Source of the DNA: Marsupella aquatica
Lineage: Eukaryota > Plantae > Marchantiophyta
Assembly (NCBI GenBank): GCA_973895155.1
Contig: OZ316892.1
Coordinates: 15,244,861 to 15,308,860, forward strand
DNA length: 64,000 nucleotides
Direction of reading: 5' to 3'
Positions 6,571 to 49,265 of the stretch are shown in pieces. Each line of letters starts with the position of its first letter. Position 1 is the stretch's first letter. The notes beneath the pieces were generated by a model. The model saw nothing but the letters and a program-made list of their open reading frames with translations. It was not told the origin of the DNA and ran no database searches. Made by a program: the position numbers and the translations under genes.

Positions 6571-6894
6571 TGTGAGGAGAAATTAGATAAGGAAAAACAC
6601 TCTAAACATACACGTGCTCAATAGTTACGTGGTTTGCTTCAAGGTTGGCTACATCCACGGGAAGACCAAGCTTTATTAATGGTTATGTGTCTACTCAAGC
6701 ATCACCATAGCTCCCATCTCTTCAAGCTCTCATCTCTTGCTATATCATTATGTTCTCTCTTAAGAACTCTCTTGTGTTTTCTCACACCACATAGAAGTTG
6801 AAGAGATAAGGACCAATCTCTTCAACTAGGGTTTACTCTAACCCTAGTTAACATACTAACCATAGTTCAACCCAAAACTGAGTTAACCTCTACA
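6571..6894 (-). repeat. Copia 3' LTR
   Basis: Aligns end to end with 12295-12618; about 13 substitutions counted by eye. Confidence 0.95.
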
Positions 6895-7088
6895 AACTCC
6901 CCCTTGACTCACGTCTTGGGAGGGTTCATAACATTGTCTTTTCCTTACAAGTTCCTCCGTGGGAAGTTCAAGACAGTAGGGCCAAAAGACCCTCTCCCTA
7001 ATGCAAGGGTTAACTAGAACTAAGCCGTAGCCGATAAGCCATCGGATGGAGTACTCATATAGAGACATTTTCTTGGTTAACTCTATAT

Positions 7089-10000: not shown

Positions 10001-11125
10001 CATTTGATAGAGTACAATACTTGCCACCGGGTAGTTGAATCTTTACGGATCCAATCCCTAAAACTTTGCAAGAATGATTATTTCCCATCAAAACAGATCT
10101 GTTGATAGAAGTGTAGGATGAGAAAAGTTCACGCATATAACACATGTGATACGAGCAAGCGGAATCCAAGATCCATTGACAATCCTCAACTTGGGAAGTG
10201 GTACACAATGCAAATCCTTCACTATCATCTTCTCGAACAACTACTTGGGCTGAAGAACCAGCAACTTTCTTGAATGTGTCTTTCACGCGACAATCCTTCT
10301 TCATGTGGCCCACTTTGTCACACTTCCAACACTTTATCTCACGAGTAAACTTGGATGGTGATTTGGATCGAGATCTAGATCTGGATCTAAATCTCCTCCT
10401 ACCAAAGGATCGGTCGTGGAACCTTCCTCGCTCCATGGGAAGTGGGTTAAACCGTTTATTTTCATGAGATGGCTCCCTTGTTTTGCCTCTTTCTACCAAT
10501 AGTGCAGTTGATGATGAGGTTGAGGTAGGATGAGCTGAAGAAACCAGCTTAGACTGCATATCATCGGTCAACAGGGCACTCACTACATCATTGTAGGATA
10601 TAGTTATCTTATCACGGAATAGAAGAACTCGAGACAAAGATTGGTACGAAGGTGGTAGTGAGCTCAAGAATTGTAAGGATTTCTTTTCTTCGCTCAAATG
10701 CTCCCCCAAATTCTCTAGGTCAACCACAAGATCATTGAACTGATCGATATGATCTTGAATCTTGAATCTCCATCAGCCATTTTGAATTCCATGAGCTTCA
10801 GGCTTGCATACATTTGGTTTGACATCTCCTTCTTGTAGTACTTGTTGCGCAATGCTTGAAACAAGTCCGTCACCGTTTGTGTTGCTTTTTCCTCGAACTG
10901 CTTCTTCACATTGTTTTTGAGGTACATGCCAACAATACTTACCGCTTGATCCTGGAGATCATGCCAATCATCATTTTCCATCTCCTTGGGTTGAGATCTT
11001 AGTACCTTGCCTAGGCCCATCGCCCTAAGTGCATCCCTCACGTTACGTTCCCACATTGTATAGTCCATCCGACCATCAAATTTTTCCACCTTAAACTTTT
11101 GACCTCCAATCCTAGTAGTCGCCAT
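7089..11125 (-). pseudogene. Copia gag-pol polyprotein, broken by stops and frameshifts
   Basis: Gag 'KFKVEKFDG'; zinc knuckle CWKCDKVGHMKKDC; protease WILDSACSYHM; pre-integrase LWHARLGHMSE; integrase IHSDVWGP..FIDDYSR; RT LYVDDML; RNase H 'LHCDSQS..KHIDVRYHFIR'. Split across at least six ORFs. Confidence 0.95.
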
Positions 11126-12294
11126 CGCTGGAATGCCAAATGTACTGTGGAGTCACCTTCCGACAAGAAATAAACGTCGAATGCTCAGATGTGGGGTGTG
11201 AAAATAAGGCCAAAAATGAAAGTTGGTGAATTTTGAAACTGATCACTCCTATGTGTAGCCCACAAGGTAACGCTCCAAATTCTGAAAACAGTTTGTCAAA
11301 TGGACTCTCGAGTGCCGAGAATTTTTACTCCGACCGGAGGGGGGTAAAAGATGAAATAATTACCCCTCGAGGGAATCTCTTATTCCAAAGATTCCACTAG
11401 TATACTTTTTCAGAATCGAACGCACCAATACTTGCCTAGCTTCCCCAAGTACGCCTCTCCAAAAGTTGAAGTTGATCCAATTTTATTTGCCGCTCAGAAT
11501 CTTTGACCTTCTGTAAAAATTTAAGCCTCTGGAAAAGAATCTTTTCGGGAAATTCCGTCCGCCCTTGTACAACCCCTGTGGGGGACTTCACAGGGGGCAC
11601 TTCCCCCTGCCCGAGCCATGTCGAGCCCTAAGAGGCCTCCTCGAAGTTTTCGACCTCCTCGCGCGTCCGCGGAAGTCGCGACTACTCGCGGCAGAAAGTA
11701 CCCCTCGGCGGATTCACTCAAATTCCCGTCTCAGTTTTTGACGAAATCCAATTCTGATTTCAGATTCAGAAACTAGACTTCGAGGGCATCAAGATTGATA
11801 TAAAGAACTCTCAAAACGATGGAGTAATGAGGGAGAAACAATTCGGTGAAAGTGACTGATATTAAGTCATCCGCCATAGCCAAAATTTCGAGCTCAAAAA
11901 ATGAGAATTGAAATTAAGATTGCTTCTCAACCGTTTGACGGAATTCAACGATGTTGATATCGAAACGTCTAGAAAGACAAGGCGCTCAAGCGTATCTTAG
12001 TTTCAAGTCCGGATAGAACAATCAAAAAGACTGATCTGAGAAATTGACCTTATCTCTTGCCCGATAATGTAAATTGAAAACTGTCACTTACAATTGTTTC
12101 CGTTTATGACCTCAGGCCTTCATTGCTTCACTGAAATGAGCCCCTGGTTGTGTATTCCACACTTGTGAGAAGATTGAGTCCGATCTTCTTTCAATAGCTC
12201 CGCTTCGAAGAGGAATCATCCGTCGTTCGCTTTGCTTGAAGCAAGTTCTATGGAGTTCCTAATCGACTGAAAAAATCTGAGCTCATATACCAAT

Positions 12295-12618
12295 TGTGGG
12301 GAGAAATCAGATCAAGAAAAACACTCCAAACATACACGTGCTCAATAGTTACGTGGTTTGCCTCAAGGTTGGCTACGTCCACGGGAAGACCAAGCTTTAT
12401 TAACGGTTATGGGTCTACTCAAGCATCACCATAGCTCCCATCTCTTCAAGCTCTCATCTCTTGCTATATCACTGTGTTCTCTCTTGAGAACTCTCTTGTG
12501 TTTTCTCACACCACATAGAAGTTGAAGAGATAAGGACCAATCTCTTCAACTAGGGTTTACTCTAACCCTAGTTAACATACTAACCATAGTTCAACCCAAG
12601 ACTGAGTTAACCTCTACA
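12295..12618 (-). repeat. Copia 5' LTR
   Basis: Adjacent to the PBS; TG...CA ends; followed by the TSD GTTAT. Confidence 0.95.
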
Positions 12619-13212: not shown

Positions 13213-13297
13213 AGTCACGGAACTTGACTACATTAACACTTAGCTCCAACGTCACTGACTCCGATGCCGAGCTCCTATGTGCATGGTCCAAGCCGGT
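13213..13297 (+). mobile_element. Truncated 5' end of a chromovirus LTR (family of 22118-30814)
   Basis: AGTCACGGAACTTGACTACATTAACACTTAGCTCCAACGTCACTGACTCCGATGCCGAGCTC matches the sense-strand LTR start AGTCGCGGAACTCGACTACCTTAACACTTAGCTCCGGCGTCGCTGACTCCGACGCCGAGCTC. Confidence 0.85.
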
Positions 13298-15964
13298 ATT
13301 AATAGAGAGAATGCAACAAAGCCTTCAATCAATAGTGATCTAACCATTGCTAGAGTGTTTTTGGATGGAAATAGTGACCAAACTAATGATAGGGTAATTT
13401 TTGGACAGGCGTGATGATTTGGTCACTGATAGGGTACTTTTTTGACAGAAGTATTAACAACAATATCCAAGTTAGCACATGTTGGTGTTTCTATGCAACC
13501 TTTAACAGTGGCTAAGTTGTGCCCTAGCTAATCTAACCAGGCGCTAGAGTTAAGTACCAACAAAACTCCCCTAGCTCTAGTCCTAAGTTAACTACCTAGC
13601 AAGCTTACTTCTACTCTCCATATATATATCCATAGGAAATTCTAGAAAGGAAAACCTCCCCTTTGTAACTAGAATTAAGTTGCACCTGATACTCCGTCGG
13701 ATAGGGCATACATAATATTGGGGAAACCATGGTCAACATGCAACCAAGAGCACATGCACCCCAACACATGAGAGACAAGTGGTTCACTCTTCAATGAGGC
13801 TATGTCCTCAAGAACACACAAGAACTTTATTACACCCCTATTGGTCATACCAAGCATCCATAGCACAAGTTCTCCCTATTTCTCAAGTTGTTAGGTGACA
13901 ATCAGCAAAAGTCTCCATGGGGAGCTCTTCCTTGCCGCTCTATATGCTTCTTATCTTAACATTGGAAAACAACAAAACACTTTATTATGCATTCGCATTG
14001 TATGCATTTTGAGTACACAACAGTGTGATCCACCACTTCATCATAGATACAAGATAAGCTGTTGCCTGTTTTACATAAGATTCATGTGAAGAGTTATGTT
14101 GTCTCCTAAAGCACAACTTGTAAGAAACTATCGGCTCAGACTAGACATCAAATGCAAAACATGCTCAGAACATTCAATCTCACACTACACCAACAAGACA
14201 CCATGATGGAGAAATTCCTAAAGGATCGATCCATAGCCGATGAGAAAGTACATGCGAAGAACGAGGGAAAGAATGATCTCCGTCCAACCTATACCCCCGG
14301 GGGGCCTAGATGTGTGGGCCTAATCTAAGCGGATCTTATCCTATTACATCAAGGGTTAACTTACCCTGGTAAGGCCAAAGTAACTAAAGTCAAGGACTTG
14401 AGTCAAATCCTAACACAACTGATATCTTATAAATGTTTTTACCTAATTGTGAGGGATACAAATATAAGAGCGCTAGCGGCTAGCATGAATGTCTTCAAAG
14501 TCTATCTATCTTTCGGGGGCACTATTTGATGTCATGGAGTTGCAGTCATCATCCAATCCTGCCAAAAGATCTGGCTTGATCTTGTCTCAAACCCTTCAAG
14601 ACGGTCTCTCACATACAACCTTGATAGCCTCCGGAAAACAGGTCTACAAGATGGACAATCCACCCAAGTTTTGCCCTCAAAGTCAACAGCCCTACCCTAC
14701 TCCTTGGAACCAAGCCCAAATTCCTCATCATGTATCATTTGGATGTCCTCTGAATGGTGGACATGGATGGTGAACTTTCCACCAAAGGGTCTTGGAGAAG
14801 AGTCACAAAGCCATAAAATGTTGCGCTCCGCTGGACTTAGTCCCTCTTCAGGTGGTAGCTGCTCGTTGTTGTTGCCTCTCGGTGTCTGCTTGTGTAATAG
14901 TCACCAAAATTTTCAGAACAGGGGAAAATGGAATTAAAGAATCATCTGGTCTGACGGTGTCCGCAGGATCATTCAAACTCTGACTCCCATTCAACCTCTT
15001 CTTGTCTCCTTCGCACACTGTTGATGTCATCACAAGACCTCTGCCCAATTCCACAATCCATCATCTAAGGTCTAAAAACTTGCTTGAAAGACAACCAAAA
15101 AGGCGGCCTGGACTCAAAAATATTTTGGGCACCAATGCAAACCCAAACTACTTTGAGCTTTGAAATTTTTCTTTACAGTTTCTAAGACCAAAAGAACTAA
15201 AAAACATCCATAGTAGCCTCACGCGTTAGCGTAGACAAAATGTTCCATACCTAAAAGCAAGTATGATCATAATAGCATAAGGTGCTAACGCCAAAAAACA
15301 AGGCAAGTTAATTGTGCTTAGTGAACTTGTCCAAGAGTCAATAACTAGAATTATTGTTTGCAAGTGACAAACATCATTATATTCTTTTAGCTGTTGACTC
15401 AATAAATGAATTTTGTCCTAGTTATCTTAGCAAAATTCTTTAGAATTATTTTTGAATGATTCCTCAAAGATGGCAAGGAGTTTGAGAAATTGGAAGAAAC
15501 TTGGATTACAAAAGGATGTAATCCCTAAATTAGAGTCTGCTGCTTTTCCATGCCCAAAAATATATACCGTAGCACAACAAAAATGATAATTGTAGCTCCA
15601 TACACTCTAATTTGGATTTATTTCATGTGTTTAAAGATCATAAACACTAAACTCCTCAAATTTTGTGTGGGAGTGAGTCTCATATTAGCTGTTGATGCAA
15701 AAAAATTGAGATAATTTAACATCACAATATGATATGATCGCTAAACTAGTACCTCTAGCTATCTCAATACCCCCTAAATATCTTGTGTAGAAAGAACACA
15801 ATGCTATTATAGTGCCAGACTCTACCATAAATCACATTTTGTTGATGCATAATAAAGTCCATAATTTGATAATAGTATCATTTGCTACATTTCTGACAAG
15901 CCAAAAATAATCACATATATACCAATTGTCAATGGAAGTTTCAGTTTTTGTAAAGAACCACTGA

Positions 15965-16569
15965 ATAATTTGGATGACACAACATCTTTTTTCTTAAATA
16001 ACAACATCTTGGGCGACACAACATCTGTTTTTCTTAATGACATCTTAGATGACATGACATCTTTTGTCTTAATAGCATCTTGGGCGCCATGACACCTTTT
16101 TTTTAACGACATCTTGCTTTTTCACGTCATCTTTTTTCTTCACGACATCTTGTGTGCAACGCACGGGTATTTTCTTCACGACATCTTTTGTTCTCAATGA
16201 CTTCTTGGCCGACACGACATCTTTTGTTCTCATCGACATCTTGGCCGACACAACATCTTCCTTCTCAACGATCTCTTGGCCGCCACTACATCTTTTGTTC
16301 TCAACGACCTCTTGGCTGACATGACATCTTTCGTTATCACCAGCATCTTGGCCAACACGACATCTTTTGTTCTCACATCTTGAGCGACACAACATCTTTC
16401 TACTCAATGACCTTTTGGTTGACACGACATTTTTCTTCTCAATATTACCTCTTGACCGACACAAGATCTTTATTCTCAACAACCTCTTGGTCTACATGAC
16501 CTCTTAGTTTTGTTCTTAACATCTTGGCCGTCACTACATCTTTTGTGTAAGGCATGGATATTGAGCTAG
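15965..16569 (+). mobile_element. Minisatellite-rich non-autonomous Helitron-like element
   Basis: ~36-39-bp units (ttctcaacgacctcttggccgacacgacatcttttg). Contains GTGCAACGCACGGG (within 16151-16170), a classic plant Helitron 3' hairpin, and ends in a degenerate hairpin followed by CTAG|T at 16566-16570. Confidence 0.65.
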
Positions 16570-17836
16570 TACATGCTAATTCTGCGAAAAACAAAACAGA
16601 GGTGAAACGAATGCAGCCTGGATGGGAGTCCTAAAACTTAGAAAGTATTCCTATCATGTAGAACCGGCCCCACCTGCCGTATTACTGGCAAGCATGGCAT
16701 GAGTTAAGTTGATGCCGACGACGTGGTAACAACACCACACAGTGCATCGTGAAAGTAGACTTTAGAGCCAGCGCTCCGCTGTTCTTGTGTTTCGTCCTCC
16801 TCCTCCTCCCTTCCATCCCGCCGCGGCCAAGGCGAGCTGGCAGGCAAGATGACTGTTTCTCGATTCCTCTTTTTCCTTGCATTATTTAGGAACTTTGCAA
16901 TGCGACGATGCGCTTTTGATTCATTAATAAATTAAACGCTTTCGAGACAACATCGAAGAAGAAGATTGGCGGTCGTCCGGTCCCGCAAATGCCGTCGAGC
17001 CGTTCGGTCTCCTGTCCTCGTCCTCGTCCTGCTGCGTGCCTGCCGTGGTGGCTCACTATGGTGGCATGGAGTATTACTAGTAATAACAATAATCAGCAGT
17101 CGAGTCCATATCTATGGCGCATCGTAAACTCCTACCACTATTGCATTGCTGAAAAAGCTGCAGCGGTCTACGCTCCGCCGGTCCCTGCCTCCTACACTAC
17201 TTCTGCTACTGCAGCGCGGACAAGGTTTTCCGGCGACTATCTCACTTGTCTGATGAGATCAGTTTTCCTTGGAGGCACGAATGGTCAATGTGCGACTTGG
17301 ACTGGACTGCGGGCGCGTCTGTCACGAGCTTTGTCACCGGATGTCAAGATCGAATTTGAGTACAGTGAAGTGTGCGCTCTGTCGGTCCTTGGTTTCGTTA
17401 ACATCCTCGTAGGTTCCATGCAAGCCTTGGTAAAATTCCAAGATTTAAATGGTTCAGAAGCGGATTGTCGAGCCTATCTGTGTGTTTAGCTCCGTACTGT
17501 GTCATGGCACATCGTAACTCGGCGCAATTGAACCAGTTTTTCCGCCCTCTGCTCCATTGACGGACAGGCTCGCCTAGGTTTGCACTGTCTCTCATTTTTA
17601 CGCCAATGGAACTGTTGTCCGTCTAGCTTCTTGATACCATTATTTGTACTGCGTGGTCGCAATTCTTCACAATTAGCTTACTGCGATGCCCTGCTATGCG
17701 CTCTATTTACCCTTTGCTCCTTGCAGATCGCAGGGCGATCTGTCACATCTGAATCACACCTCAGTTGTAAAATTGGAGCTGCGTTGTATCTTGGACTCTG
17801 TGGCGGAGACGGCAGTGTTCTGTGCTTGCGTCTACT

Positions 17837-20800
17837 ATGACGAAGGCATGGCGACTAGCCTTGGCAGCATTGTACATTCTCTGGATCGAATTAGAGCTAG
17901 TCGGGGGATCTGTGCACGAGTATCGAAATGCATCTCTTTCACTGATAGGAAACGCTTATATGCTGTATGGTGGTAGTGAGGGCCTTTACGCGTCCTCATC
18001 GAATGCAAATAATCCTGGGGTGGCCAATGGAAAGTCTTATATCAGGTATGCCCAAGTACACTAGCTTAGAATGTGTTTGCTTTATTTTTTGCACCTAGAC
18101 ACCTCAATGTGTGAGCTATATCGCTAAATTTTTGGGAACGGGATTGCGGATCTACTCATACTTGTTCTCCTTACTCTTACATTCCACACAATCTCTCTGG
18201 TACTCTTCATTATGCATAATACGGATTGCCCCTTTGCACTTCCATCTGCAAGCCTCGGTACACCTATTATCTTTGTCTCTGTTATGATTGGCGATGCGTT
18301 TCTGTTGCATTCACCCGGGAGTGCCTATACAGATAACAGCTAGATGTGCGGAAGAAGAAGGTTGTCGGCATGCTGTAGTCGATAGGCTTGAGTTCTTGTT
18401 AACGGGGTCCTCTCTGCTGAGATGTCCTCTTCCAAGAGTCAAGTCGTAGTGTCCTTGACATCTCTGAACTGTTTCCGACATTCTTTATATGCTGGAAGTG
18501 ACGTTTTGCATAGAAATCTGTAAATGGCAATCTCATAGAAGTATCTTTGCACAAAATCTTCAACTGGGATTGGCTCAGTAAGAAGTTGCGAGCTTCACAA
18601 TTCTTCTCTCAAGGATTTTGGTGGATTGCATAGCACATTCCCCTGTTGGCGGACCCTTTCCTAACTGCGTACCCACTACTTTCGTTGAAGAACCTAAGTA
18701 GGGGAGGGTTGTTGCAAGTCAAACATCCCTCCTGCGGCGATCTCAGGGATGCGAGATCCTTTTGATTGTTGGAAACGGCGAAGATCCTGCCCTGTGCTAT
18801 GGAATTAGCTCGCTATACCCATTTTTATGGCCATATTTCAGTTTGCCAGATCGAGTCGACTAGGAAGTAGAATATTTCCTTACACGCACTACTTACTCTT
18901 CTCTCCTCTGTTCAGATTTGACTCTTCTCTCACGCTAAGAAGGCCAGCAGATTCTATCCCTCAATTTCAATCTGGACCGCCTGGTTTAGTGGAGGCGATT
19001 ATTTTTGAGGTAACGAATGCAGACAGGATTGGCAGCCGAATTAATGGACAAAAAGCATTTTGTTGCTCTGCAGACTTGTCAAAACAATTGCCCTGCCGTG
19101 AAGGTGAAGTCATCCTACATCCATCTGCAGAGGATCCGCAATGGCCACTCAATCTACATCTCTATTTTGGTGGCACAGATCTGGAAATCAGGTTTCCTTT
19201 CCAAGAAGTAAACATCACCAGAACGGGAATGTACACCCTATATTTCATCACCTGCGATACCAGACTCTCAGGGCTTGTTGTGGAAGGGAAGACTGTATGG
19301 AAAAACCCTCACGGTTATCTGCCAGGTCGTATGGCTCCCTTAGAGCTATTCTACGGATTTCTCTCACTGTTGTATCTGGTACTTGGAATCTTCTGGTTCC
19401 TTCAATATCTGCGGTTCTGGATAGACATACTGCAGCTTCAGAACTGCATAACTTTAGTTATAGGCTTGGGTATGCTCGAGATGGCCTTATGGTACTTTGA
19501 GTACGCGAACTTTAACCACACAGGATTGAGACCAATGGGCATAACAATTTGGGCAGTTACCCTAGGAGCAGTGAAGAAGACAGTTGCTCGCCTTCTCATT
19601 TTAGTTGTTTCGATGGGTTATGGCGTCGTACGTCCCACTCTTGGGGGTCTGACGTCAAAAGTCCTCATCCTGGGGTCGACTTATTTCCTGGCTGCGGAAT
19701 CATTAGATGTGGTAGAAAATGTGGGTACTATCAATGATCTATCAGGAAAGGCACGCCTGTTTCTTGTGCTTCCAGTGGCAATTTTGGACGCTATTTTTGT
19801 TCTCTGGATCTTCACGTCTCTTTCTAAAACTCTGGAGAAATTGCAGGTCAGTAAATTTGTAATCTTTCTTCTTGTGAAGCCCTGGATAGGAGTAGTTCAT
19901 AACTCATTTTTTCTGTACGATGCCGAAATTTCATGCTCAAACATTCCATGACTGTATAATATTGGCTAAATCTTCTCAGGGGACTTGTTGGAGTGCAGGG
20001 GAGAAAACAAGTGGCGAAATTGGAGCTGTACAGGAAATTTACTAACTCCATGGCCGTTTGTGTCATCATTGCTGTCCTATGGATAGGTTATGAGGTGACT
20101 TTACTTTTGTCTCTGTTACCAAATTTGTCATCAGAATTGTGTAACTTTTTGTCTCAAAGTCTATAGTTAAGAGACGATAGTAGGAATGACATGTTATGGA
20201 AATCCAGATCTGACAGTTTTGTAGAATTGTTTTGCATTTGTTCGAGGCATCCTGTGCTTCATTCATTTGCATTTCCAGAACCAAGCTTTTCAAGTCATAG
20301 GATGAGCTGCGGGTCTTAATTAAGGACTCTGTTTAAACTATGGAAATGCGATGCTTGTATTGTGCAGCTGTACTTCAAAGCGACTGATTCTTACAGTGAG
20401 GGCTGGCAAGATGCATGGATAATTTCTGCGTTTTGGAGTATCTTAACCTTCTTACTACTATGCGTAGTTTGCGCTCTCTGGGCTCCGTCACAGAACTCCA
20501 CTCGGTGAGTTGGCAGTCAGGGCTGTCGATGGAGAATCAGGATCTGCGTGACTGAGCATTATTTTCGGGACACAGTTTTCCATTTCGCACCATTCTATTT
20601 CCTAAGGTGGAATTGATGTACTGTGCTTCTATAGCAATGATTTTCTCACGCCTGTCTTATTTTTCTGCCTCAGTTTTATTTAGTACAGATTGGTCCTGTC
20701 AAGTCATCCATGTTTCTGGATCTAAACTGTTTTCTCATGTAATATCCAATCCTGACGACAGATATGCCTACTCCGATGAAGCGCCTGAGGATTTTGATGA

Positions 20801-21911: not shown

Positions 21912-22117
21912 GTTGAACTAAATATGAATAAAAATTTAAAATGTATATTTTGTCTAATCAGGTGTGTTTTTGTATGAGATTTCTGTTAGCTGTGTTTTTA
22001 ATTAGACTAATTATAAAATTAATATAAGCTTAGTGTGACCTTAACTTAATTAAGGGCAATATTAACATAGATTAGGTGTAACATTAACCAGGCCCCTTAT
22101 CCAAGAGGGTTTGGCCA

Positions 22118-23616
22118 AGTGGTGGACCTCGTCACCCAACGCCCTCACCCTCACCAATCCCAGCACTTGTGCCTAAGTGCCCTTAGTGTCCGAACGCTTC
22201 CATGGAATACCTCGAGCAAGTATCCCAGTGTCTCTATCACTACCTGCGGCCCCTCTCATACGAAGCCGCACTTGCTCATCTACACGATCGCTACTCAACG
22301 GTCCTCACAGTCTGCACAAGCAACCAAGCACCTCGGTAAGTAACCCCTCCGGATCTAGAACTCGCCAAGTCTAGCCTCCTAACTCAAGCTCAACAGACGT
22401 TGGTAAATAGGTCAGCGATAGGTCCTCCCGATGCCATAAGCCGGAACCAGAACCCATGCCCATTGTCCGTCCAGGACAGCTCCTTCCTTGGGCGCGGCCC
22501 GGGTCCCCCTCGTACCTATCCATCACCAATTGACCGCCCTGACCTCAGGACATGCTCATGGCCCAAATAGCGTAGCTTGTCCTAAAGCTTGTCCCAAGCT
22601 TGTCTCAACACGCCGGGACCAGAACGGCCCCGACTCTAACAACCACTTCCGGTTCGCCCCACTGATGGTCTAGGGACCGAGCACCCTTGGGACTCAGCCT
22701 CCATACCTACTTGGCCTTGCCTCCCCAACGCAAGCTCCCTTGGGAGGCTGAACGCGGCTTGGCTGCTGTTCGCCAGGATTTGGCAAGCGAGCGAGCTAAC
22801 ATCCGCAAACCACGAGAACCCATGGCACCCCCGGACCCATCGGAGCTCAGGAGGGCATAGCCCTCGTCAAGATCTTTCCAGCGCACCCAAGAAGTCCTCC
22901 AACAGACTTCCCGTTGGGAAGATATCGCCATTTCCGTTTGGCGGTTTCCCTTAGTGTCGCGACCGCCGCGGCTCACGACTTCGGCTCGGCCTTAGCCCCC
23001 AGGGAGACACCACTCCCCTCATATATGCTTATGGAGACCTGCCACCCCCGGACCAACTTTGGTCCCTAAACATTTGGCCCCCAACCCGGATCCCATCGCG
23101 CATAATGGGCGAGCCACCAACTGGCAACGCCCATAATTTTCTTGATAGGCATCTGCAAGTGGAGTGCCTTAGCCCATTGTGACCGGGCCAACCCAGTGCT
23201 CATGCCTAGGCCCTCAGGTCTGATCGCCGCTCTGGGCCCCCGACCGGCCCAACCTGGATCGGGCCATAACTTGCACCCCAAGCGTCCGTTGCCAATGGCG
23301 TCAACTCCATTGGCCTTGGGCCCAAGAGGAGCTCACTCCCAAGCCCTCAAAACTCGAAGCCCATCCGATAGTCCAGACGGCCATCCTTGAGTCCGACCCG
23401 TTTGCCCTTGACCCGACCAGCCATAGGCTAGTCCAAGCCCTTAGTGTGTGTCCCCGACTTGGCCCCTTGCCTCGCCAGAGCCACGTCTCATTGCCCACAA
23501 GTCTCCCCATGCTAAGTCCTCCCCGGATGGCCTATCCGGGCCTGGACCATAAGGGAGCTCGGCGTCGGAGTCAGCGACGCCGGAGCTAAGTGTTAAGGTA
23601 GTCGAGTTCCGCGACT
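22118..23616 (-). repeat. Chromovirus 3' LTR
   Basis: Begins AGTGGTGGACC and ends TTCCGCGACT on +; adjacent to the PPT. Confidence 0.95.
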
Positions 23617-24054
23617 TGCACCCCCCCTTAAAAATGGTCACGTCCGCGTGACCTCAGTAAACGTTCCAATACACATAGACCATTTTGGGCCTTAAAAAAT
23701 TTTATGAGGTAACAAATGGTTTGCCCATAAGGCTGATGCAAACCAGGTTGGTATGCGCATTCCAAACTTAGGAAATTCCAACCTATCCCACTTATCCAAG
23801 TAGGATGCCAGTCCAAACGGGTAAGCTAACTCCAAACTCGTCGGACCCATTGTCCCCCCTTGGGGCGCTCCCCTTTGGTTCGAACTAGCCCGCCCACAGA
23901 TGTAGGGCGGGCACCATCAACTTCCACTCGCAAAAAGCAAATCGGCCGCCCAACAACCTCTAGCACCAACGCAATCTGACTTTATCCTTAAGAGGCCGAG
24001 AGGAGTGAAACTAGGATACAACTCACAAAGGTAGCTACAGCTGCCTGTACCAGT

Positions 24055-27000
24055 TCACAACGGCGGTAGGCCGCTTCGCTTACGATAGCTTCCAAGGATC
24101 TCTGAGGCATTACCCAAATTTTCCTCCGGCTCCCAAGTACTCTCGGCCTGGTCGTAGCCAGCCCACTTCACCAAATACTCTAAGATTTGCCTTCCCAACT
24201 TGCGTTTGTAACGGTGGTCCAGAATTGCCTTTACCTCAAACTCCTCCGCGTCCTACACCAGCATGGCGTCCGGAAGCAAGACCTGATCCCGGTTGGGATC
24301 ATCGTCTTTAACAAACTTCTTGAGCCGACTAACATGGTAGCTTTTGCCCATGCCCATTTCTTTGGGTGTCTCCAACACCACCGAAACCGGATTATCCTTG
24401 TGGGCCCATCGTAGGATGCAATAGGGCCCCGCATATCTGGGAGCCAGCTTCCTACTTATGTTCCCGTGGTATTGCTCAGGTCTCAACTGCAACCAGACGC
24501 TCTCCCCAATTTCAAAGTTTATCTGGCGTCGATGTTTATCCCCTTGCTCCTTGTACCGACTTTGGGCAAGGGTCATACCCTTGGTAGCCGCTTCCACAAC
24601 TAGGCGCCGCTCTCGAATAAAATTGTCCGTAGAAGGAACCTTGCTTTCTGTCCGCCAAGCTTCCGGATTTATAAACCAGGAGGACGCCAAGGGCGTCCTC
24701 CCTGTGGCCAACACAAACGGCGCAAACCCCGTCACCGACTGCTTGGTCGAGTTATACCTAAACTCGGCCATTGTTAAATGCTTTGCCCAATCCTTCTGAT
24801 TGGCTATCACAAAGTGATGCAAGTAGTCCTCCACGATACCATTAACCCGTTCTGTTTGGCCATCTGTCTCATGATGATACGCTGACCCCCTGGTCAGGTC
24901 CGTTCCAAATAACCGGAACAACGCCTTCCAAAAATGGCCCGTGAACTTGGTATTGCGATCGGACAGGATATGCAACGGCAATCCCCACTGTCAAAAGACA
25001 TTGTCAAATACTAGACCGGCAACCTCTCGGGCCGAAACCATCTTCGTAGTAGGCAAGAAATACGTCATCTTGGAAAAACGATCCACGATTGTTAAGATGG
25101 AGTTACTGCCGTGGGACTCAGGTAATCCAACAATGAAGTCCATGGAGATAGACTCCCATGGAGCCGCAACTACTGGTAAGGGTTGTAATAGTCCTCCTTT
25201 TGCCCTATAGACCGTTCGGTTCTTTTGGCACGAGTAACAACTTTGCACGTGTTGAAGGACCGATTGCTTCATGTCCGGCCAATACACATCTCGCAACATG
25301 CTGCGATACATAGCGGCTTGTCCTGTATGCCCTCCCTAGGGTGAGTTGTGGTACTTTTGCAGAACCTCTAACCTTAGAGACTCCGGTATGTACACACGCC
25401 TCTGCTTGTATCGCCATAACTGGACATTATGCGTCTTATCCAACCCCAACAATACGTGCCTTACCTTGCCTTGGCTACCCCCATTGCTTTGCCATTCCTT
25501 AGCTAACCTGTCATCCTCATACGTTGCGGCCAGAATCTTTGGCCACTCGGATTCAAGCATTGTAATCCCATTGACACGATGTTGGTCCTTACGCGATAAC
25601 GCGTCGGCTACCGTGTTTGTCTTCCCTGGAACGTGGCGGACTTCGAAATCAAAATCCGCCAAGAACATCTGCCAGCGCATTTCCTTGGGGTTCAGCCTTG
25701 GCTTAGAACTGAAGTACCCGGCCGACGAGCTATCTGTGTGGATTACCACTTTGGGACCATTCTTAAGGTAAATCTCCCACTTCTTCAACGCGTAGATCAC
25801 AACATACATTTCCTTTTCCGGCGTGATCCAGTGATTTTCCAACTTACATGACTCAAAGGCCACAGGACGCCCATCTTGGTGAAGACGGGCGCCGATGGCA
25901 TAATCACTTGCGTCTATCCAAATCTCGAACGGCTTCCCCATCTCAAGTAACTTTAGAACCGGCGGTGTTATCATTAACCGCTTAAGTTCTAGGAATGCTA
26001 ACTCGCAATCCTGTGTCCACACAAACACTTTGTTTTTCAACGTTAGCGCATTGAGGGGCCTCGCGATCCTTGCATAGTCTTTCATATATCTCCGATAGAA
26101 CCCCGTAAATCCTAAGAAGGCTCTAACTTGCCTTACATTGGACGGACGCTCCCATTCTTTGATCTCCTTAAGCTTGTCCTGACTAGGCGTAATCCCTTCC
26201 GGGGTAAAGGTATGGCCGAAGAACTGAATCTCGTTCATCGCAAACTTGCACTTGCTAGGTTTAGCAAAGAGGCGAGCCTTACGAAGGCGAGAGAACCCTT
26301 CTCTGAGCAATTGCTCATGCTCCTCCAACGTTTTTGAGTAGATTAGGATGTCGTCAATAAAGACGACCACTCCTTGGTCCAACAAGTCATGAAAGATGGT
26401 ATTCATCATCTTCATGAACGTTGCAGTTGCATTACACAACCCAAACGGCATGACCAAAAACTCATAGGATCCGAACCTTGTGCGCATTGTGGTCTTATAC
26501 TCGTCTCCCTTAGCCATGCGGATCTGGTAATACCCAGACCGCAAGTCCACCTTTGAAAACTTCTTAGCCCCGAAGAGGCAATTGAAGAGGTCATCCATAT
26601 GAGGTAACGGGTACTTGTTCTTTACCGTTTGCTTATTGAGGGCCCGGTAATCTGCGCACAATCTCAAAGTACCATCCTTTTTGGACACAAACAGCGTAGG
26701 CGCCCCGTAAGGACTCTTACTAGGGCGAATGAACCCTTGGTCGATCAACTCTTCCAAGGCGTTCTTCAGCATCATTCGCTCGTTCAGGTTCAGACGATAA
26801 GGAGCTTTAGCCCGAGGAGTCGATCCCGGCTCCAACTCAACTTGGTGATCCACTTCTCTCCGCGGGGGTAAACCTTTAGGTAGCTTCTGTGAGAGCACGT
26901 CGTTGAATTCCTCTAAAATTTCAGGAATTTGACCACAGTCGGGCCTGACCTTAGCTGACTTGACCTTTGGCTGTGACGCAGCCTCCTTAGTTGGGTGGAG

Positions 27001-29175
27001 ATGAAAGAAGAAACATTCATGTCCACCCTTGAAGTCTTTCCACCATTGCTTCGCCGATACACACGGAGACATCCATGACACTTTACTTACTTTAAGAAAT
27101 CTTTCTTTATTTTCGGTAATTTCGTGTACAAAGATGGGCTCACCGCCCTTATTGGGAAAATGGAGCACCTCACCCCCGGGTTTCAAGGTAACATTGTGCT
27201 TTCTGAGATAACCTACCGACAAAATGAAGTCTACGGCTAGACCGTCTAGAACGTAGAACATCTTCTAACTAACAAAATTTTGTTGTTCGCCTATGACCTC
27301 TACCCGAAGTCCATGCACTACTCTCGACACTATCCACTTTGTGTCGTTGGCAAACTTGCACACTAACGGTTGTAACAACTCTTGCACGTCCACCCCAAGA
27401 CAAGCTGCCGCCTGCCCACTTATGAAGCAGGCGGTCGCGCCTGTATCCACCAAAGCAACACCCAGATTACCATTAGAAGTGACATTCACAAAAATCAGTT
27501 TTTCAGGATCCATTGTCTTAACTTTAGGTATCTTCTCTCGCAACAACACCCTCTCTCTGTTAGGGACATCCCCTACAGGGACCTTGTCAGCTTCTAAGGG
27601 TTCGGTTAGAGCGATACTTACCTTAATGCTCTTCTGCCCTCCACCATCTCCGTTTGGCTTGCCACCTTTCGTGGAACAATCCTTACTTTGATGGCCCATG
27701 GCGCCACATGTGAAGCACGAACCTTCAGCCCGCCTCTGCTCCATGGTTGCCTGCTTCTTTGCTTTTTGTGCCGATGAGGCTCCGATCTTAAAGTTGTCAG
27801 CCTTCCGGTTTCGCTTAGCTTCTCCATTCTGGGGTTGGGAATCCGAACCACTGGCCCCCGCCCCCTCAGGTTGCTTACACTTATTCCCGGGACCTTTTGC
27901 TTTCCCAGCTTCCCCCTTGGATCCCTTGCCATCCACCTTTGCCAAGTCCGGTCAGTTATTCACCAACGTAGTGGCCTTGTCGAAGGCGTCAGAAAGCGTT
28001 TTGAACTCATGACGCTTTTCTTGCAACTTTTCCCTGAGCAACGGCGGGAGCTTCACGATAAAGTTTTGAAGTTGTGTATGCAAGGTCTCTTGTCCCGCCG
28101 GGATACAAGCCAACTGATTTTGGTAATAAGCGATGAACTTTTGGATATCACCCCTGAAGCTCATCTCAGTTACACATTTCTGAGCGTGCCGCTCCGAGTA
28201 CTTAGTGGTGACATGAGCACGGAGACCATCAACCAGGTTTTCCCAAGTTAACGGCAAGGAGTCCTCTCGCGACTTCTTCCATGACTTGTACCAAGTCAAG
28301 GCATAGTCCTTCAGGTAAGGAGCGGTTGCGGTAGCCCAAGTGGAACGCTCAATGCACGCTTGGAGATGAATCTCCATCGTGGAGAGCCAACTCAGGAACT
28401 TTTGTCCACTTTGTTTGTAGGCCCCGTCGTAAGTTGGAGGAGTCGGTAGTTGGTTCACTTGGAACATACTCCGTCCAACTACCATTCTCCCCTCGGGACG
28501 CGACGCCCTTTGACTACCCAGACTAAGTAAGTACTTAATCTGGGCCCCCTTGTTGTGTTCCAACTGCTCATAGATGAGTCGTTGGTCTTGAGTCAACGAA
28601 CCCAGACCATCGTCAGCGGCCGGGCCCTTGCGGGTTGTATGAGGAGGGTCCTCCAACCGTCTTTCCTTTGCGGGCCGCCTATCCTTAGGTTCTCTTATGG
28701 ATTTTGGTGATACCCCTCGCGTCTTGCGAGCACCATGACCCCCCGGGACTGAGGTATCACCCACGTCATCCTGGTTTTGCTTGGTCAAATTATCCACGAT
28801 GACGTCCGTCTCGACATCATCCTCTGGTTTTGCATTCAACCCTCTCAAGGCTGGGATCAATTCCTCCTCTGGGTCCTAACCCTCTTCCTCTATTTTGGCT
28901 TCAGCCTCGTCATCGCTTCCTTCTATGTCAAAGTCATCGTCATCCGACCCATCCTCTGAAGGATCAGCCACCTCCTTCCCTTTAAGTCGATGGCGCTCTA
29001 CACTCGACTTGTTTGCCGCAGCGATCGACGGTTCGGCCGTTGCGTCTTCTTCATCTTGCTTGTAATGTTTGTCTAGGGCAGTCGACCCATCTTCCTTTTA
29101 TTCATCGTGAACTTGGGCTCTCCCCTTGGTGGTGGGAGCCTGCTTGCCACTCTTTGCGCGAGTGTTTTTTGCCAT
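24055..29175 (-). pseudogene. Chromovirus gag-pol, one frame of 1706 codons with 7 in-frame stops
   Basis: ATG at 29175 (MAKNTRAKSG). Knuckle CFTCGAMGHQSKDC; protease LVDTGAT; RT YPLP and VFIDDILIYS; RNase H IDASDYAIGA; integrase SISMDFI and DGQTER; C-terminal chromodomain EEFEVKAILDHR...EYLVKWAGYDQAESTWEPEENL. All the track ORFs share one frame. Confidence 0.94.
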
Positions 29176-29320
29176 GTCCCCAGCGACCAAATCTGCCCGC
29201 AGTCGACCCGCCGGGCACGTTGAAGCACTAAGTCCCCGCAAAAATCCGTTAAGATTTTTGGATTCCGACTTAACGCGACCCCGGCCCGGTGTCTATGCCG
29301 GCAATTGCTCTGATACCACA

Positions 29321-30814
29321 AGTGGTGGACCTCGCCACCCAGCGCCGTCACCAATCCCAGCACTTGCGCCTAAGTGTGCTTAGTGCCCGAACGCCTCCAT
29401 GGAATACCTCGAGCAAGCATCCCAATGCCTCTATCACTACCTGCGGCCCCTCCCATACGAAGCCACACTTGCTCACCTACACGACCGCTACTCAACGGTC
29501 CTCACAGTCTGCACAAGCAACCAAGCACCTCGGTAAATAACCCCTTCGGATCTAGAACTCGCCAAGTCTAGCCTCCTAACTCAAGCTCAACAGACGTTGG
29601 TAAATAGGTCAGCGATAGGTCCTCCCGATGCCATAAGCCGGAACCAGAACCCACGCCCACTGTCCGTCCAAGATAGCTCCTTCCTTGGGCGTGGCCCGGG
29701 TTCCCCCTCGTACCTATCCATCACCAATTGACCGCCCTGACCTCAGGACATACTCATGGCCCAAATAGCATAGCTTGTCCTAAAGCTTGTCCCAAGCTTG
29801 TCTCAACACGCCGGGACCAGAACGGCCCCGACTCTAACAACCGCTTTCGGTTCGCCCCACTGATGGTCTAGGGACCGAGCGCCCTTGGGACTCAGCCTCC
29901 ATACCTACTTGGCCTTGCCTCCCCAACGCAAGCTCCCTTGGGAGGCTGAACGCGGCTTGGCTGCTGTTCGGCAGGATTTGGCAAGCGAGCGAGCTAACAC
30001 CCGCAAACCACGAGAACCCATGGCACCCCCAGACCCTTCGGAGCTCAGGATGGCGTAGCCCTTGTCAAGATCTTTCCAGCGCACCCAAGAAGTCCTCCAA
30101 CAGACTTTCCATTGGGAAGATATCGTCATTTCCGTTTGGCGGTTTCCCTTAGTGTCGCGACCGCCGCGGCTCACGACTTCGGCTCGGCCTTAGCCCCCAG
30201 GGAGACACCACTCCCCTCATATATGCTTCTGGAGACCTGCCACCCCCGGACCAACTTTGGTCCCTAAACATTTGGCCCCCAACCCGGATCCCATCGCGCA
30301 TAATGGGCGCGCCACCAACTGGCAACGCCCATAACTTTCTTGATAGGCATCTGCAAGTGGAGTGCCTTAGCCCGTTGTGACTGGGCCGACCCAGTGCTCA
30401 TGCCTAGGCCCTCAGGTCTGATCGCTGCTCGGGGCCCCCGACCGGCCCAACCCGGATCGGACCACAACTTGCGCCCCAAGCGTCCGTTGCCAATGGCGTC
30501 AACTCCATTGGCCTTGGGCCCAAGAGGAGCTCACTCCCAAGCCCTCAAAACTCGAAGCCCATCCGATAGTCCGGACGGCCATCCTTGAGTCCGGCCCGTT
30601 TGCCCTTGACCTGACCAGCCATAGGCTAGTCCAAGCCCTTAGTGTGTGTCCCCGCCTTGGCCCCTTGCCTCGCCAGAGCCACGTCTCATTGCCCACAAGT
30701 CTCCCCATCCTAAGTCCTCCCCGGATGGCCTATCCGGGCCTGGACCATAAGGGAGCTCGGCGTCGGAGTCAGCGACGCCGGAGCTAAGTGTTAAGGTAGT
30801 CGAGTTCCGCGACT
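29321..30814 (-). repeat. Chromovirus 5' LTR
   Basis: Same termini as the 3' LTR; separated from the PBS by 2 nt. Confidence 0.95.
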
Positions 30815-30916
30815 GGCCACAATAGGGGTGAAGTGAAAATTAAAAGCAAGTATCAAATATTAAGGGTTTGGCCACAATAGGGGTGAATTGAAAAATAAAA
30901 GCAAGTATCAAATATT
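30815..30916. repeat. ~55-bp tandem duplication; the chromovirus inserted into the first copy
   Basis: ggccacaataggggtgaa(g/t)tgaaaa(t/a)taaaagcaagtatcaaatatt occurs twice; the second copy keeps the intact junction agggtttGGCCAcaatag. Confidence 0.88.
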
Positions 30917-38469: not shown

Positions 38470-38810
38470 CTTCACCAAAAACATCCACTCCATTTTCGCA
38501 AGAAAATAGCCTCTACTTCTATAAGATTAGTACCACGAGAGACATGAACTTTGAAGGTAGTGGTGGTAGGACACTGGTAATGAAAGGCAAAGAGAATTTT
38601 GTACAACACTGGTCGTTTGGGCAACCAATATGGATATGGAATACCTTTTTCATTAAGTTTACCCAACAAATACCAACAACGCCCAATCCTCTTACTTTCA
38701 ATCCTGTCTCTCTAATCAATTGAGCACATACTCCCCATTCCTTGCCCTTGAATGCACCTCTACAACCCCGACTCTTACCACTTGTTGAGATGCGAGCCAA
38801 AAAGAACATC
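38470..38810 (-). pseudogene. Decayed C-terminal fragment of a bryophyte/fern-type transposase-like protein
   Basis: Frameshifted translation FLARISTSGKSRGCRG..C..LIRE / YW.CPNDQCCTK..VLPPLPSK / VSRGTNLIEVEAIFL. Resembles from memory the C-termini of SWIM-type TE proteins of mosses and ferns. Confidence 0.45.
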
Positions 38811-38819
38811 CCAATGTCA

Positions 38820-41560
38820 TTTGTGCCCAGTCGATTTGGTTGGAGTCCAGGTGAGGGGCCAGAATTAGCAGGAAATGGTTAGTTTGACGATGGCAGGTCA
38901 AAAGCATATATGAGGGGAATGCATGGTGTCTCTCTCAATGGTCAGGAGCAAGCACAAGCCTGGATGTGGTTTGCTTGAATGTGCTACTAAGAGTAGATAC
39001 CAAATAGAAATGATGATATCTTCTCAAGAGAAAGTCCATTTGGGACTTGTTGAGTACGTTGGAAAACTCTTGAGTGACACCTCCTCACAATATCAGCCAG
39101 TCTTGGTATGAATTTGGTCCACACGGTTTTCATGGACTAGCTTGCTTGTCTACTTGCCAGAAGAGCAGCCAATTCACGTTTGATTTCCACAAAATTTGCA
39201 TTGGAGTGGCCATTTGACAGGCCTGGGTGTTGAAGGCCAAGTTTTTCATGCCCTAACAAGCCTAGTTGAGTTGTACTCATTGAGATGGTTATGAGAGTCG
39301 GGATAAGGTTGATCTCGACGCTTGGGACAAACTTCATAACAACCTAGCTATTTGGGCCATGGGCATGTCTTGGAGGCAGGGCAGTCAGCCAATGATGGAT
39401 GAAAGTGAATAAGCCCAAATGCCACCGGATAGAGGGACTATTTTTTTACGACTAATGGGTGTCACCCTTAGCTTCAGCTTATGCCTAAATCTATCCGCTA
39501 CCCTACTTACTAAACACTGTTGAGTTGATGCAAGACAAAAAGGTCTTTGGTGTTACCGGTTGGTTTGTTTGCTTGTGCCAACTGTAAAGGTTGTTGATTA
39601 AAAATAGTGTTGATGAGCAAGTGCGGCTTCATACGGAAGTTGTTGCTGGAAATGATAGGAGCACTAGATTGCTTGCTCGTGGAGTTTTTTATAGGGGCTT
39701 GGGAACTCAAAGTACCTAGGTATTGAGTTTGGTGCTCGGTTTGGTGAGGGTGTATGGTGACTAGGTCCACCACTACGCCTAACAAGGAAGTTATGGATCG
39801 AGCAAGTTTGCTTTGTGCCCACTCAACTTAGTTGGAGTGCAGGTTGGGGGCCAAAATAGGAGACCAAAGTTGGACTGGGGGTGGCCTCACCAAAATCATA
39901 TATGAGGGGAGCATAGCCTCTCTCAGTGGGCTAGGGGCGAGCCCAAGTCTGGATGCATGGCAGTCCCATTACTTACAGGAGACACCAAATTGAAAGACAA
40001 TATACCCTCAACTAGAAGCCCTTTAGAGGACTTCTTGGGTGCGTTGAAAATCTCTAAGAAGTGTACCTTCTCAAGATATCATCTATGTCTTGGGCAGACT
40101 TTGTTCCTCACAGTTTGCATGGACTATCCCACTTGCTTGTTGAACCTGCCAAAATAGCAGCCAATCCACATTTGGTTCCCACGAGAGCTTGCATTGGAAC
40201 TGGCCATACAGAGTAGGCTTGGGTGTTGAGGTACAAGTTCATGGTGCCATAAGGATCCTAGTTGAGTTGGGCCATTAAGACGGTTACTTACAAGAGCTGG
40301 GACGAGGCTGGTCACGACGCTTGGGACAAGCTACAAGCTAGCTATTCGAGCTATGAGCATATCTTGGAGGAAGGGCGGTTAGCCACTGACAAAAATAAAG
40401 TGAAGAAGTTTGGGAGACATCCAATAAAGGGACTATACTAGATGAACAATGGGTGTCAATTTTAGCTTCAACTTATGGCAAGGTATCCAATAACTTATTT
40501 TCTAACAACTATAAAGCTGCCTTGATACAAGATGACAGTCTTAAGTTTTGCGACGGAAATGATTACTTACTGGTTGGTTCGCTTCCTTGTGCAGATTTTA
40601 GAGGTTGTTGAGCTGCAATCGCGTTCAGGAGCAAGTACAATTTTGCATGGGAGTTGCCACTGATTACGATAGGGGCACCAGGTTGCTTGTTCATGAAGTT
40701 TTGTGTAGGTGCTTGGATACTCATAGTGCCTAGGCCGAGCTTCCAACCGTTGCTGGATGATGGGTTGCTAGGTCCACCACTTTACTCAAGCGCATCCAAA
40801 CCCCTTGGTTGGACGATTGGGCGTAAGGTTAGAAGCTAAACATAGGGGACCAAAGTTGGTCCCAGGTAGACGTATCTCTAGAAGCATACATGAGGGGATT
40901 GGTGTCTCCTCTAGTGAATAAGGGGTGAGCCCAAGGCATGGGGCACAACGATTGCACTGCCAAAGGAAAATATCATATGGAAACAACAATATATTGTAAT
41001 GGGGAGTCGGTTGGGGGACTTCTTGGGCTTGTTTGAAAGCTTTTGAGAGTCACTACTTTCTCAGTTAGGCCCTCTGATAACTTTGGTTGTCATGATTTGC
41101 AGGGAAATTGAACCTGCTTGTTGATCTTGTCAAAATGGCAGCCAAGCGACATCGAATCTCCACAGGGACTCCATTTTGGGGAGGCCAATGCCCATAGACA
41201 AGGTGTTGAGGGCCAAGTTTGTCATGCCCTAGTGATTCAAGTTCAGTTGGACCCATTGGGACAGAAGCTAGACTTAGAAATGGATTGGTCTTGACACCTT
41301 GGAACAAGATAGTTGCTTAGGGCCATTCTTATGTACAAGAGGCAAAGCGATCAGTTATGGATAAATAGAAAATGGGGAAACAAGGATACATCCAATAGAG
41401 TTACTTCAGACAAACAATTAGTGTTGACCCTTTGTTTATACTTATGGCAAGACTGGCACACTATGAGAAATTCTATTTGCTAACCAACTTACTAATGATT
41501 GTTGAGTTTGGAACAAGACAATCATTAAATTGTCCCTTGCTATCTTGAGTGAAGTATTTA
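38820..41560 (+). repeat. Three head-to-tail, ~1-kb, diverged partial copies of the chromovirus LTR
   Basis: The TATA-region motif catata(t/c)gagggga recurs at ~38905, ~39897 and ~40885. The LTR terminus GGTCCACCACT ends at 39774 and at 40781. The internal motif gctatt(t/c)g(g/a)gc(c/t)atg recurs in units 1 and 2. Confidence 0.78.
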
Positions 41561-48069: not shown

Positions 48070-49265
48070 TGTAGTGTCGGCCAAAAGGTTGTTGAGAAGA
48101 AAGATGTCATGTCAACCAAGATACCGGTGAAAACAAAAGATGTCTTGATGATGATGTTGTGTACCCCAGATGGAGATAAGTGATCTCATCAATTATCAGT
48201 CACTTTCATCAGTGTACCTGATATCAACTGCCACCTCATCTCAGAGAAATCGTCAAGTTGTGATACGAAAAAGAAAAAAAGAAAATTTGAAGGAAAACTT
48301 TTTTTTTTCAAAATATTTTTTGCCATGAGGCGTTCGTACCGTACGGACACCTATCTCGGTGAGCCCAACCGAGATGGGAAAAAAATTTCCAAATTTGTGG
48401 TTTTTTTTTTTCCACGTTTTTTTCCGGTTCGTACGCCCCATCTCGGCGAGGCCAGTTGAGATGGGGAAAAAAAATTCAAATTTTTTTGGGGGGGGAATTT
48501 TTTTGGTTTTTTTTTGTGGATTTTTTTCTGTCCGTACGCCCATCTCGGCAAGGTCAGCCGAGATTGAATCAACCTCGGCTGCCCAGCTGAGATAAGCGGA
48601 AGTTTGAAGGCCCCATCTCAACTCCTCAACTGAGATTCTAAAATTTTTGAGATAACTGATGATGTTGTGTACCCCAGATGTCTTGTTGGTCAAGATGTCG
48701 TTGAGAACAAAAGATGTCATGTCAGTCAGGATGTTGATGAGAACAAAAAATATCGTGTCTGCCAAGAGGTTGTTGAGAAGAAAGGTGTCATGTTGGCCAA
48801 GAGATTGTGGAAGAAATAGAGGTCATGTTGTCAATGATGTCATTATGCCGAAGGTTTCTTTAAGTATAACAATGTTGTTAAGTACAAAATAACTCAATAT
48901 ACGTGCATTGCACAAAAGATGTTATGTCGCCCAAGATGTTATTATGTGAAAGATGTCGTGAAATAAAACGATGTAGTTAAGAAAAATGAAATTGTTTTGC
49001 CAAAGATGTAGTTATGTGAAAGACATTGTGAAGTAAAAAGATGGTGTTAAGAAAAAAGAAGACATTTTGCCAAACATGTCATCAAGTAAAAAGTTATTGT
49101 CAAGTAAAAAATTGTCATTAACAAAAAAGAAATCGTTCATTTGCCAACGATGTTGTTATGTGAAAGATGTCATGAATAAAAACATGTCATCGAGTAAAAA
49201 GATGATGTGGTGCCAAATGGGTTATTATGTGAAAAATATTATGAAGTAAAAAGATGTTGTCAAGT
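48070..49265 (-). mobile_element. Second array of the Helitron-like minisatellite (reverse orientation), interrupted at 48148-48675
   Basis: Units such as gttgagaacaaaagatgtcatgtc..ccaagatg are the reverse complement of the 16-kb array. A Helitron-end-like segment (reverse complement catcttttgtgcaatgcacgtatattgag) lies at ~48893-48921. Confidence 0.65.
48148..48675. mobile_element. Small insertion with 24-bp direct repeats and three hairpin-forming internal units
   Basis: TGATGATGTTGTGTACCCCAGATG at 48149-48172 and 48657-48680. Flanking duplication AGATGTCTTG at 48138-48147 and 48676-48685. Three internal units 'cgtacg..catctcgg..(c/t)gagat' separated by A/T tracts. Confidence 0.55.

Follow-up and report, generated by a model that had tools for sequence, protein, structure and literature searches.

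The 64,000-nucleotide stretch of Marsupella aquatica DNA analysed here and referred to as the window (GenBank assembly GCA_973895155.1, contig OZ316892.1, positions 15,244,861 to 15,308,860 of the forward strand) carries on its minus strand, at 22118–30814, a Ty3/gypsy retrotransposon of 8,697 bp, the long terminal repeats (LTRs) of which read 5'-AGT...ACT-3'. Textbooks treat the terminal CA as invariant in the integration of retroviruses and LTR retrotransposons. We consider it very probable that the element is a degenerate member of an abundant Ty3/gypsy family which bears a chromodomain, occurs in a leafy liverwort and is likely of the Galadriel/Galahad lineage, and that it ends in AGT...ACT because its integrase likely joins CT-3' and not CA-3'. 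The AGT...ACT ends are constant across many insertions, and the family is a many-copy one.

LTR termini and target site duplications

The 3' LTR (22118–23616, minus strand; 1,499 bp) and the 5' LTR (29321–30814, minus strand; 1,494 bp) both read AGTCGCGG...GGTCCACCACT in the sense of the element. On the forward strand, GGGTTT and the left copy of GGCCA (22113–22117) are followed from 22118 by AGTGGTGG. At the right border CCGCGACT runs up to 30814, with GCGACT as the last bases of the element, and the second copy of GGCCA (30815–30819) comes directly after it. The preliminary description of this DNA had reported AGT...ACT in both LTRs and a perfect GGCCA target site duplication (TSD), and the sequence reads exactly so. 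Over aligned columns the two LTRs share 96.4% identity and differ by 44 transitions and 10 transversions (Kimura two-parameter distance, K, 0.037). The insertion site is one unit of a 55-bp host tandem duplication (30814–30916), the intact neighbouring unit of which, at about 30860–30916, represents the empty site. It contains a single GGCCA and lacks the AG; alone, this unit cannot separate a 5-bp TSD from one of 3 or 6 bp.

A solo LTR of the same family at 51361–52882 (plus strand; 1,522 bp, 83% identical, K 0.20) constitutes a second, independent insertion with AGT...ACT ends. It reads AGTCGC...CCACCACT and has a perfect duplication, GATGC, at its flanks. Older relatives were also located in the window. 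Three old tandem LTR relatives, truncated at their 5' ends, occupy 38778–41510 (plus strand; 67% identical); two of them extend as far as the U5 end, and both still end in GGTCCACCACT (at 39774 and 40781). A short LTR-start fragment at 13213–13299 (plus strand; 86% identical) begins AGTCAC. The 11-mer at the U5 end has five exact occurrences in the window; when up to one mismatch is allowed there are seven matches where 1.04 would be expected (0 of 100 shuffles). The tandem relatives are spaced at ~990 bp, with no internal sequence between them.

The canonical 5'-TG...CA-3' is thus absent from both LTRs and the solo LTR, as it is from the family junctions described below. The window also holds a copia element (6571–12618, minus strand) with LTRs of 324–326 bp that are 96% identical, canonical TGT...ACA ends and a GTTAT TSD. 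Because this neighbour, which serves as an internal control, is canonical, AGT...ACT is no effect of the assembly or of the host as a whole. The 5' LTR of the copia element is followed by TGGTATATGAGC, a variant form of the usual primer-binding site (PBS) of Met type.

Junctions of other family members

Contigs from public runs were compared with the element, the best-supported matches being listed. Contigs leave the LTR after 23616 and pass into unrelated host DNA in runs X1, X2 and X3 (at least 36, 118 and 120 contigs, respectively), the agreement among their flanks being 0.33–0.37. At the other end they leave the element at 29321 in runs X1, X2, X3 and X6 (at least 12, 39, 36 and 13 contigs), with a flank agreement of 0.35–0.44. 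The family-wide check of termini that had been proposed in the preliminary description therefore returned exactly the same bases at both ends, in at least three of four runs at 23616 and in four of four at 29321. Two points weigh against this result. Among the matches listed, run X5 has no loose end at 23616; and since the runs share insertions, the contig counts are counts of non-independent events.

Internal sequences and coding capacity

Next to the LTRs, and in the sense of the element, lie the PBS and the polypurine tract (PPT), where they had been claimed to be. A T-tract is followed by the PPT AAGGGGGGG and then by TG-CA immediately before the LTR start (23617–23634, minus strand). At the opposite end a TG spacer (29320–29319) leads into a 12-nt PBS, TGGTATCAGAGC (spacer and PBS together 29307–29320, minus strand), which we take to be of the initiator-Met tRNA type. 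The 2-nt extension of the termini into an inverted repeat, CAAGT/ACTTG, is likewise present inside both ends; its chance expectation is 1 in 16. In the public-run contigs (best 40 of 42 rows) no variant is listed at 29311–29332.

A single gag-pol frame (24055–29175, minus strand; ATG at 29175) encodes Gag, a CCHC knuckle, protease, reverse transcriptase (RT), RNase H (RH), integrase (IN) and a chromodomain without a frameshift. It contains seven premature stops, in codons starting at 29100, 28878, 27954, 27267, 25338, 24993 and 24255, and because of these the copy at 22118–30814 is dead. An open relative, P0128, of 1,672 amino acids has the same layout and is 82–83% identical in pol. The chromodomain (24058–24252, minus strand; Pfam PF00385, E 1.7e-17) is in the same frame as the integrase and is of type I; all three aromatic-cage positions (F, W, Y) are kept in the alignment. 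No env-like or other third open reading frame (ORF) of at least 150 amino acids was found in the element. With protease, RT, RH and IN in this order between direct LTRs, and with PBS, PPT and TSD, it is a Ty3/gypsy element, of which TG...CA is a typical but non-defining trait; the errantiviruses lack TG...CA too.

Phylogenetic placement

The host gene at 18809–19948 specifies a protein 93% identical to one of the liverwort Calypogeia fissa, 79% to one of Riccia and 77% to one of Marchantia. The closest RT cluster includes five C. fissa proteins among the 15 members listed. Both results point to a leafy liverwort near Calypogeia as the likely host. Two trees were built from the RT-RH-IN region, one with FastTree from the window and 88 of 183 homologues (those with at least 90% coverage), the other with IQ-TREE (LG+G4) from 37 rows. 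In the latter the closest partners of the window element are C. fissa and P0128 (100/100), followed by P0138 (100/100) and then by a clade with a Riccia sorocarpa element (100/98). The nearest named neighbours in the tree are the C. fissa proteins (CAM6102883.1 and others), which belong to the same family, are 86% identical to P0128, have the same HHE loop as the window element and are annotated merely as 'unnamed protein product'. That the element is a plant chromovirus, as first proposed, is upheld by the chromodomain match and by the grouping of its RT-RH-IN region with chromodomain-bearing elements.

An angiosperm clade with members from Prunus, Helianthus, Camellia, Melia and Hibiscus, and with P0318 at its base, forms the sister (100/100) of the liverwort group. 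The chromodomains of the angiosperm sister clade, one cluster of which has a tomato member, match the Galadriel motif of PMC3350952. With the non-seed-plant Galadriel/Galahad elements the liverwort element shares a tRNA-Met PBS, a single ORF and a type I chromodomain. From these sequence characters the Galadriel/Galahad lineage is likely. Against the assignment it must be said that the tree is without REXdb reference elements, so that the Galadriel label is taken from the sister clade and the motif.

Other clades were considered and set aside. Tcn1 elements have by definition no tRNA PBS, are self-priming and belong with the Tf1/Sushi elements of fungi and vertebrates (PMC6317226); the Met-type PBS rules this clade out, as does the position of fungal and amphibian rows in a separate clade. 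The Tekay, Reina and CRM clades of seed plants (type II or CR chromodomain) do not fit the liverwort-like host and the intact aromatic cage and are separate in the tree, in which the names of the other angiosperm clades are themselves inferred. An errantivirus was rejected on the lack of a third ORF of at least 150 amino acids and on the nesting of the element among plant chromoviruses, in a tree whose rows comprise no errantivirus.

Close relatives were not found in viral contigs (none in three protein scans; a search with the junction pattern gave four unrelated matches). Metagenome contigs yielded four loci at only 35–36% identity, with old LTRs at 82%, which are uninformative, and genome contigs two short loci at 36–41%. 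Two loci (L009, L010) are contigs with Ty3/gypsy polyproteins in two bacterial metagenome-assembled genomes of GTDB and probably represent eukaryotic contamination. An RT fragment labelled Acinetobacter baumannii (P0121, MFH3613180.1), from a 2-kb contig, falls into a 90% cluster with the liverwort family and is probably plant contamination. P0336, P0357 and P0359 are chromovirus-like polyproteins with a dUTPase domain (PF00692) which group with algal elements.

Integrase and the processing of DNA ends

The 3'-OH that integrase joins is that of the last base to be retained, and because of this CT-3' is likely the end that is joined at both termini. Reverse transcription primed by initiator-Met tRNA would leave the U5 end two bases (TG) too long; minus-strand synthesis would copy this TG, between LTR and PBS, first, and it would have to be trimmed. 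At the PPT end there would probably be two extra bases as well, and if the primer were cut at the CA that precedes the U3 start, the molecule would be symmetric (CAAGT...ACTTG); a cut after the G run instead would give a four-base overhang (TGCA). We infer a cDNA with CAAGT...ACTTG ends. Integrase would then trim the extra bases and insert the element with a 5-bp stagger. Set against the TGT...ACA of the spikemoss element SM2-Galahad, the outermost base pair alone has flipped, the penultimate C:G pair being retained. A path via TG...CT is plausible, as such elements exist in lotus and soybean.

The active-site loop of the integrase up to the catalytic Glu (24850–24885, minus strand) reads YHHE, where relatives have YHPQ. 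The loop AYHHETDGQTER can be aligned without gaps to those of prototype foamy virus (PFV; PYHPQSSGKVER, YHPQ) and Ty3 (ANHPQTDGQSER, NHPQ), and in this alignment His and Glu occupy the positions of PFV Pro214 and Gln215, numbers which we counted from a catalytic residue presumed to be Asp185. A pattern scan for the loop gave 107 distinct matches in 247 of 446 proteins, two of which were spurious RT matches. Pro is kept in 100 of the remaining 105 distinct loops; the five without it are from the family (two), from its sister P0138 (two) and from one unrelated row. When 1.84 billion representatives were searched, the loop was covered in 146 of the best 150 matches and had Pro in 136 of these. 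The four library matches of more than 50% identity all lack Pro (three His, one Ser). In the Riccia clade Pro is kept, P0313 being an example, and the sister lineage of P0138 and P0455 is without it and has Ser in the loop. The absence of the conserved loop proline (PFV Pro214) from the close clade, as it appears in these alignments, is a new observation.

In PFV, the stretch from Pro214 to Gly218 parts the two DNA strands and is stacked against the adenine (PMC6784120), and the path of the scissile dinucleotide runs over Pro214 (PMC3395085). One may speculate that the change from Pro to His or Ser accommodates a terminal T. Tentatively, a bryophyte branch of Galadriel, comprising the family and its Pro-less sisters, could have switched from CA-3' to CT-3', enabled by replacement of a near-invariant, adenine-stacking loop proline. 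Several points weigh against such a switch. Six of the 142 more distant library matches are without Pro too. In the integrase of Rous sarcoma virus (RSV) the residue that matches Pro214 is Ser, yet CA ends are used (PMC7955051). The ends have been read for one family only, which makes the joint change of loop and ends a single coincidence (n=1).

It may also be that, the AG...CT ends being real, the specificity of the integrase is relaxed, not switched, a possibility to which we attach some weight while holding it to be doubtful. The terminal base would then be weakly read, the ends would have drifted from TG...CA via TG...CT to AG...CT, and the loss of Pro would be unrelated or permissive. 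TG...CT and other last-base variants do recur in plant copia elements and are not monophyletic there (PMC9804982); the PFV contacts in the loop region are of the stacking and van der Waals kind (PMC6784120, PMC3395085), and the tolerance of RSV for Ser at the Pro214 position points the same way. Relaxation is, however, difficult to reconcile with ends that are fixed at both termini in copies diverged by K 0.2 or more. Among the matches listed no variant occurs at 29321–29332, which suggests selection on ACT and not indifference, and the first T is invariant in published plant surveys (PMC9804982; LTR_retriever preprint).

Other readings of the termini

The placing of the boundaries was examined by a scan over shifts of up to 10 bases and TSDs of 3–6 bp for both window insertions, the element at 22118–30814 and the solo LTR. 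AG...CT with a 5-bp TSD fits both, and so does GT...CT with perfect 6-bp duplications (TGGCCA and GATGCA, respectively). The preliminary description was borne out with respect to the former and had overlooked the latter, which is rejected by the read data. We therefore regard it as highly improbable that the true ends are GT...CT and that the leading A is part of the target site. Because the family contigs depart after 23616 and not after 23615, this A belongs to the element. A 6-bp duplication would moreover demand one constant base at the sixth position of the U5-side flank; in none of the four runs is that base the plurality. The fragment at 13213 begins with A as well, and 5-bp TSDs are found in 93.4% of plant elements (PMC6317226).

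There is hardly more reason to believe that canonical ends have been mis-drawn or shifted in register, with TG...CA lying just inside or outside, or that the ends mutated after insertion. It is true that a CA lies two bases inside the U5 end (CCA-CT), that TG-CA directly precedes the U3 start and that, in the 22118–30814 copy, LTR-to-LTR homology overshoots the U5 end by two bases. Two bases inside the U3 end, however, the sequence is TC and not TG. Shifted boundaries had been named beforehand as an outcome that would speak against AGT...ACT, and the scan gave no TG...CA pair with a 3–6-bp TSD within 10 bases of the ends of either window insertion; a 3-bp TSD with a CA-extended LTR was rejected by the scan and by the read junctions. 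The tandem unit that represents the empty site is without the AG. Among the matches listed, 14 contigs (5, 6 and 3) have their junction at 29319, as against at least 100 at 29321 over four runs. Mutation after insertion cannot explain why all four ends of the LTR pair agree with those of the solo LTR and of the two old relatives.

The gain of the ends or of the integrase from an insect errantivirus-type element, through horizontal transfer or recombination, seems far-fetched, since, despite the AGT/AnT ends of errantiviruses (PMC5408687, PMC3601003), the RT-RNase H-integrase region stands firmly among plant chromoviruses beside the Riccia element (in tree rows without errantiviruses), the integrase bears a chromodomain, an env-like frame of at least 150 amino acids is lacking and the PBS is of the plant Met type.

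Comparison with known elements

AGT/AnT ends are described for Drosophila errantiviruses of the gypsy, ZAM and Idefix subgroups (PMC5408687), and the hidden Markov model for Zam reads AGTTA...TAAYT (PMC3601003). These elements resemble that of the liverwort in being Ty3/gypsy elements with an AGT start and an AnT end. They differ from it in belonging to insects, in bearing env and in having sequence-specific targets, whereas the liverwort element is a plant chromovirus with differing TSDs and diverse flanks. Convergence is the most likely source of the likeness.

The original definition of Galahad was based on short RT amplicons (PMC2864245). SM1- and SM2-Galahad of Selaginella moellendorffii, members of the Galadriel clade, have TG...CA or TGT...ACA ends (Novikov 2012, PMC3350952). 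A single gag-pol ORF, the CCHC knuckle, a tRNA-Met PBS, a type I chromodomain and a 5-bp TSD are common to them and to the liverwort element. Compared by description and outside the tree, the Galahad elements are smaller (~7.5 kb, with LTRs near 1 kb) than the liverwort element, which is 8.7 kb with 1.5-kb LTRs and AGT...ACT ends. Because SM-Galahad ends in TG...CA, an end that is lacking here, we file the element as a related lineage and not as a member of Galahad.

Plant LTR elements without TG...CA ends include Tos17 (TG..GA), TARE1 (TA..CA), AtRE1 (TA..TA), those of lotus (TG..CT and others) and those of Rosaceae (TG..TT and AA..CA). Like the ends discussed here these are real and transposition-competent departures, and TG..CT shows that a CT-3' end can be joined. 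Their differences are that they are mostly copia elements with LTRs of ~300 bp, are mostly non-palindromic and, except for AA..CA, start with T; the liverwort element is a gypsy chromovirus whose LTRs are long and whose outer base pair is flipped symmetrically at both ends. In lotus, TG...CT was recorded for 6,203 copia copies, and the ends there always start with T (PMC9804982); in soybean, TG...CT was found in three gypsy copies, and in a survey of 50 plant genomes only the first T was given as invariable (both LTR_retriever preprint). The initial statement that plant exceptions start with T and are mostly copia is mostly so, the part that did not stand being the universal T: AA...CA copia and TRIM (terminal-repeat retrotransposon in miniature) families of Rosaceae start with A (PMC5659011). 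No plant AG...CT element was found in the open-access literature, direct motif queries included. As far as we have searched that literature, symmetric AG...CT ends are known from insects and are unreported in plants or in chromoviruses.

It had further been suggested that TG/CA-filtered pipelines would miss such a family. For REXdb this is documented, its source description stating that it was built solely from TG/CA elements (PMC6317226). For LTR_retriever it is implied by the motif list, which consists of TG...CA and seven other motifs, those named all starting with T (preprint). Intact copies of the family are likely under-counted in bryophyte genomes, while domain-based tools still detect the pol genes. 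If a loop-enabled switch from CA-3' to CT-3' took place, insects and liverworts would have arrived independently at AG...CT as a second stable solution, hidden in plants by the TG/CA filter of the reference libraries. A high-copy plant family with an outer-pair flip and a clade-specific loop change offers a natural experiment on the reading of DNA ends by integrase, and open-frame relatives such as P0128 make the end preference testable in vitro.

Other features of the window

Two arrays of a degenerate repeat of a 36-bp type, at 15970–16580 and 48070–49270, are in opposite orientation and about 80% complementary; they are possibly subterminal repeats of DNA transposons. At 59953–63552 (minus strand) three frames adjoin one another, one NIF-type phosphatase-like, one for Ulp1 (Peptidase C48) and one that is long, rich in Lys and Glu and made up of a 24-bp repeat; these may be DNA-transposon cargo.

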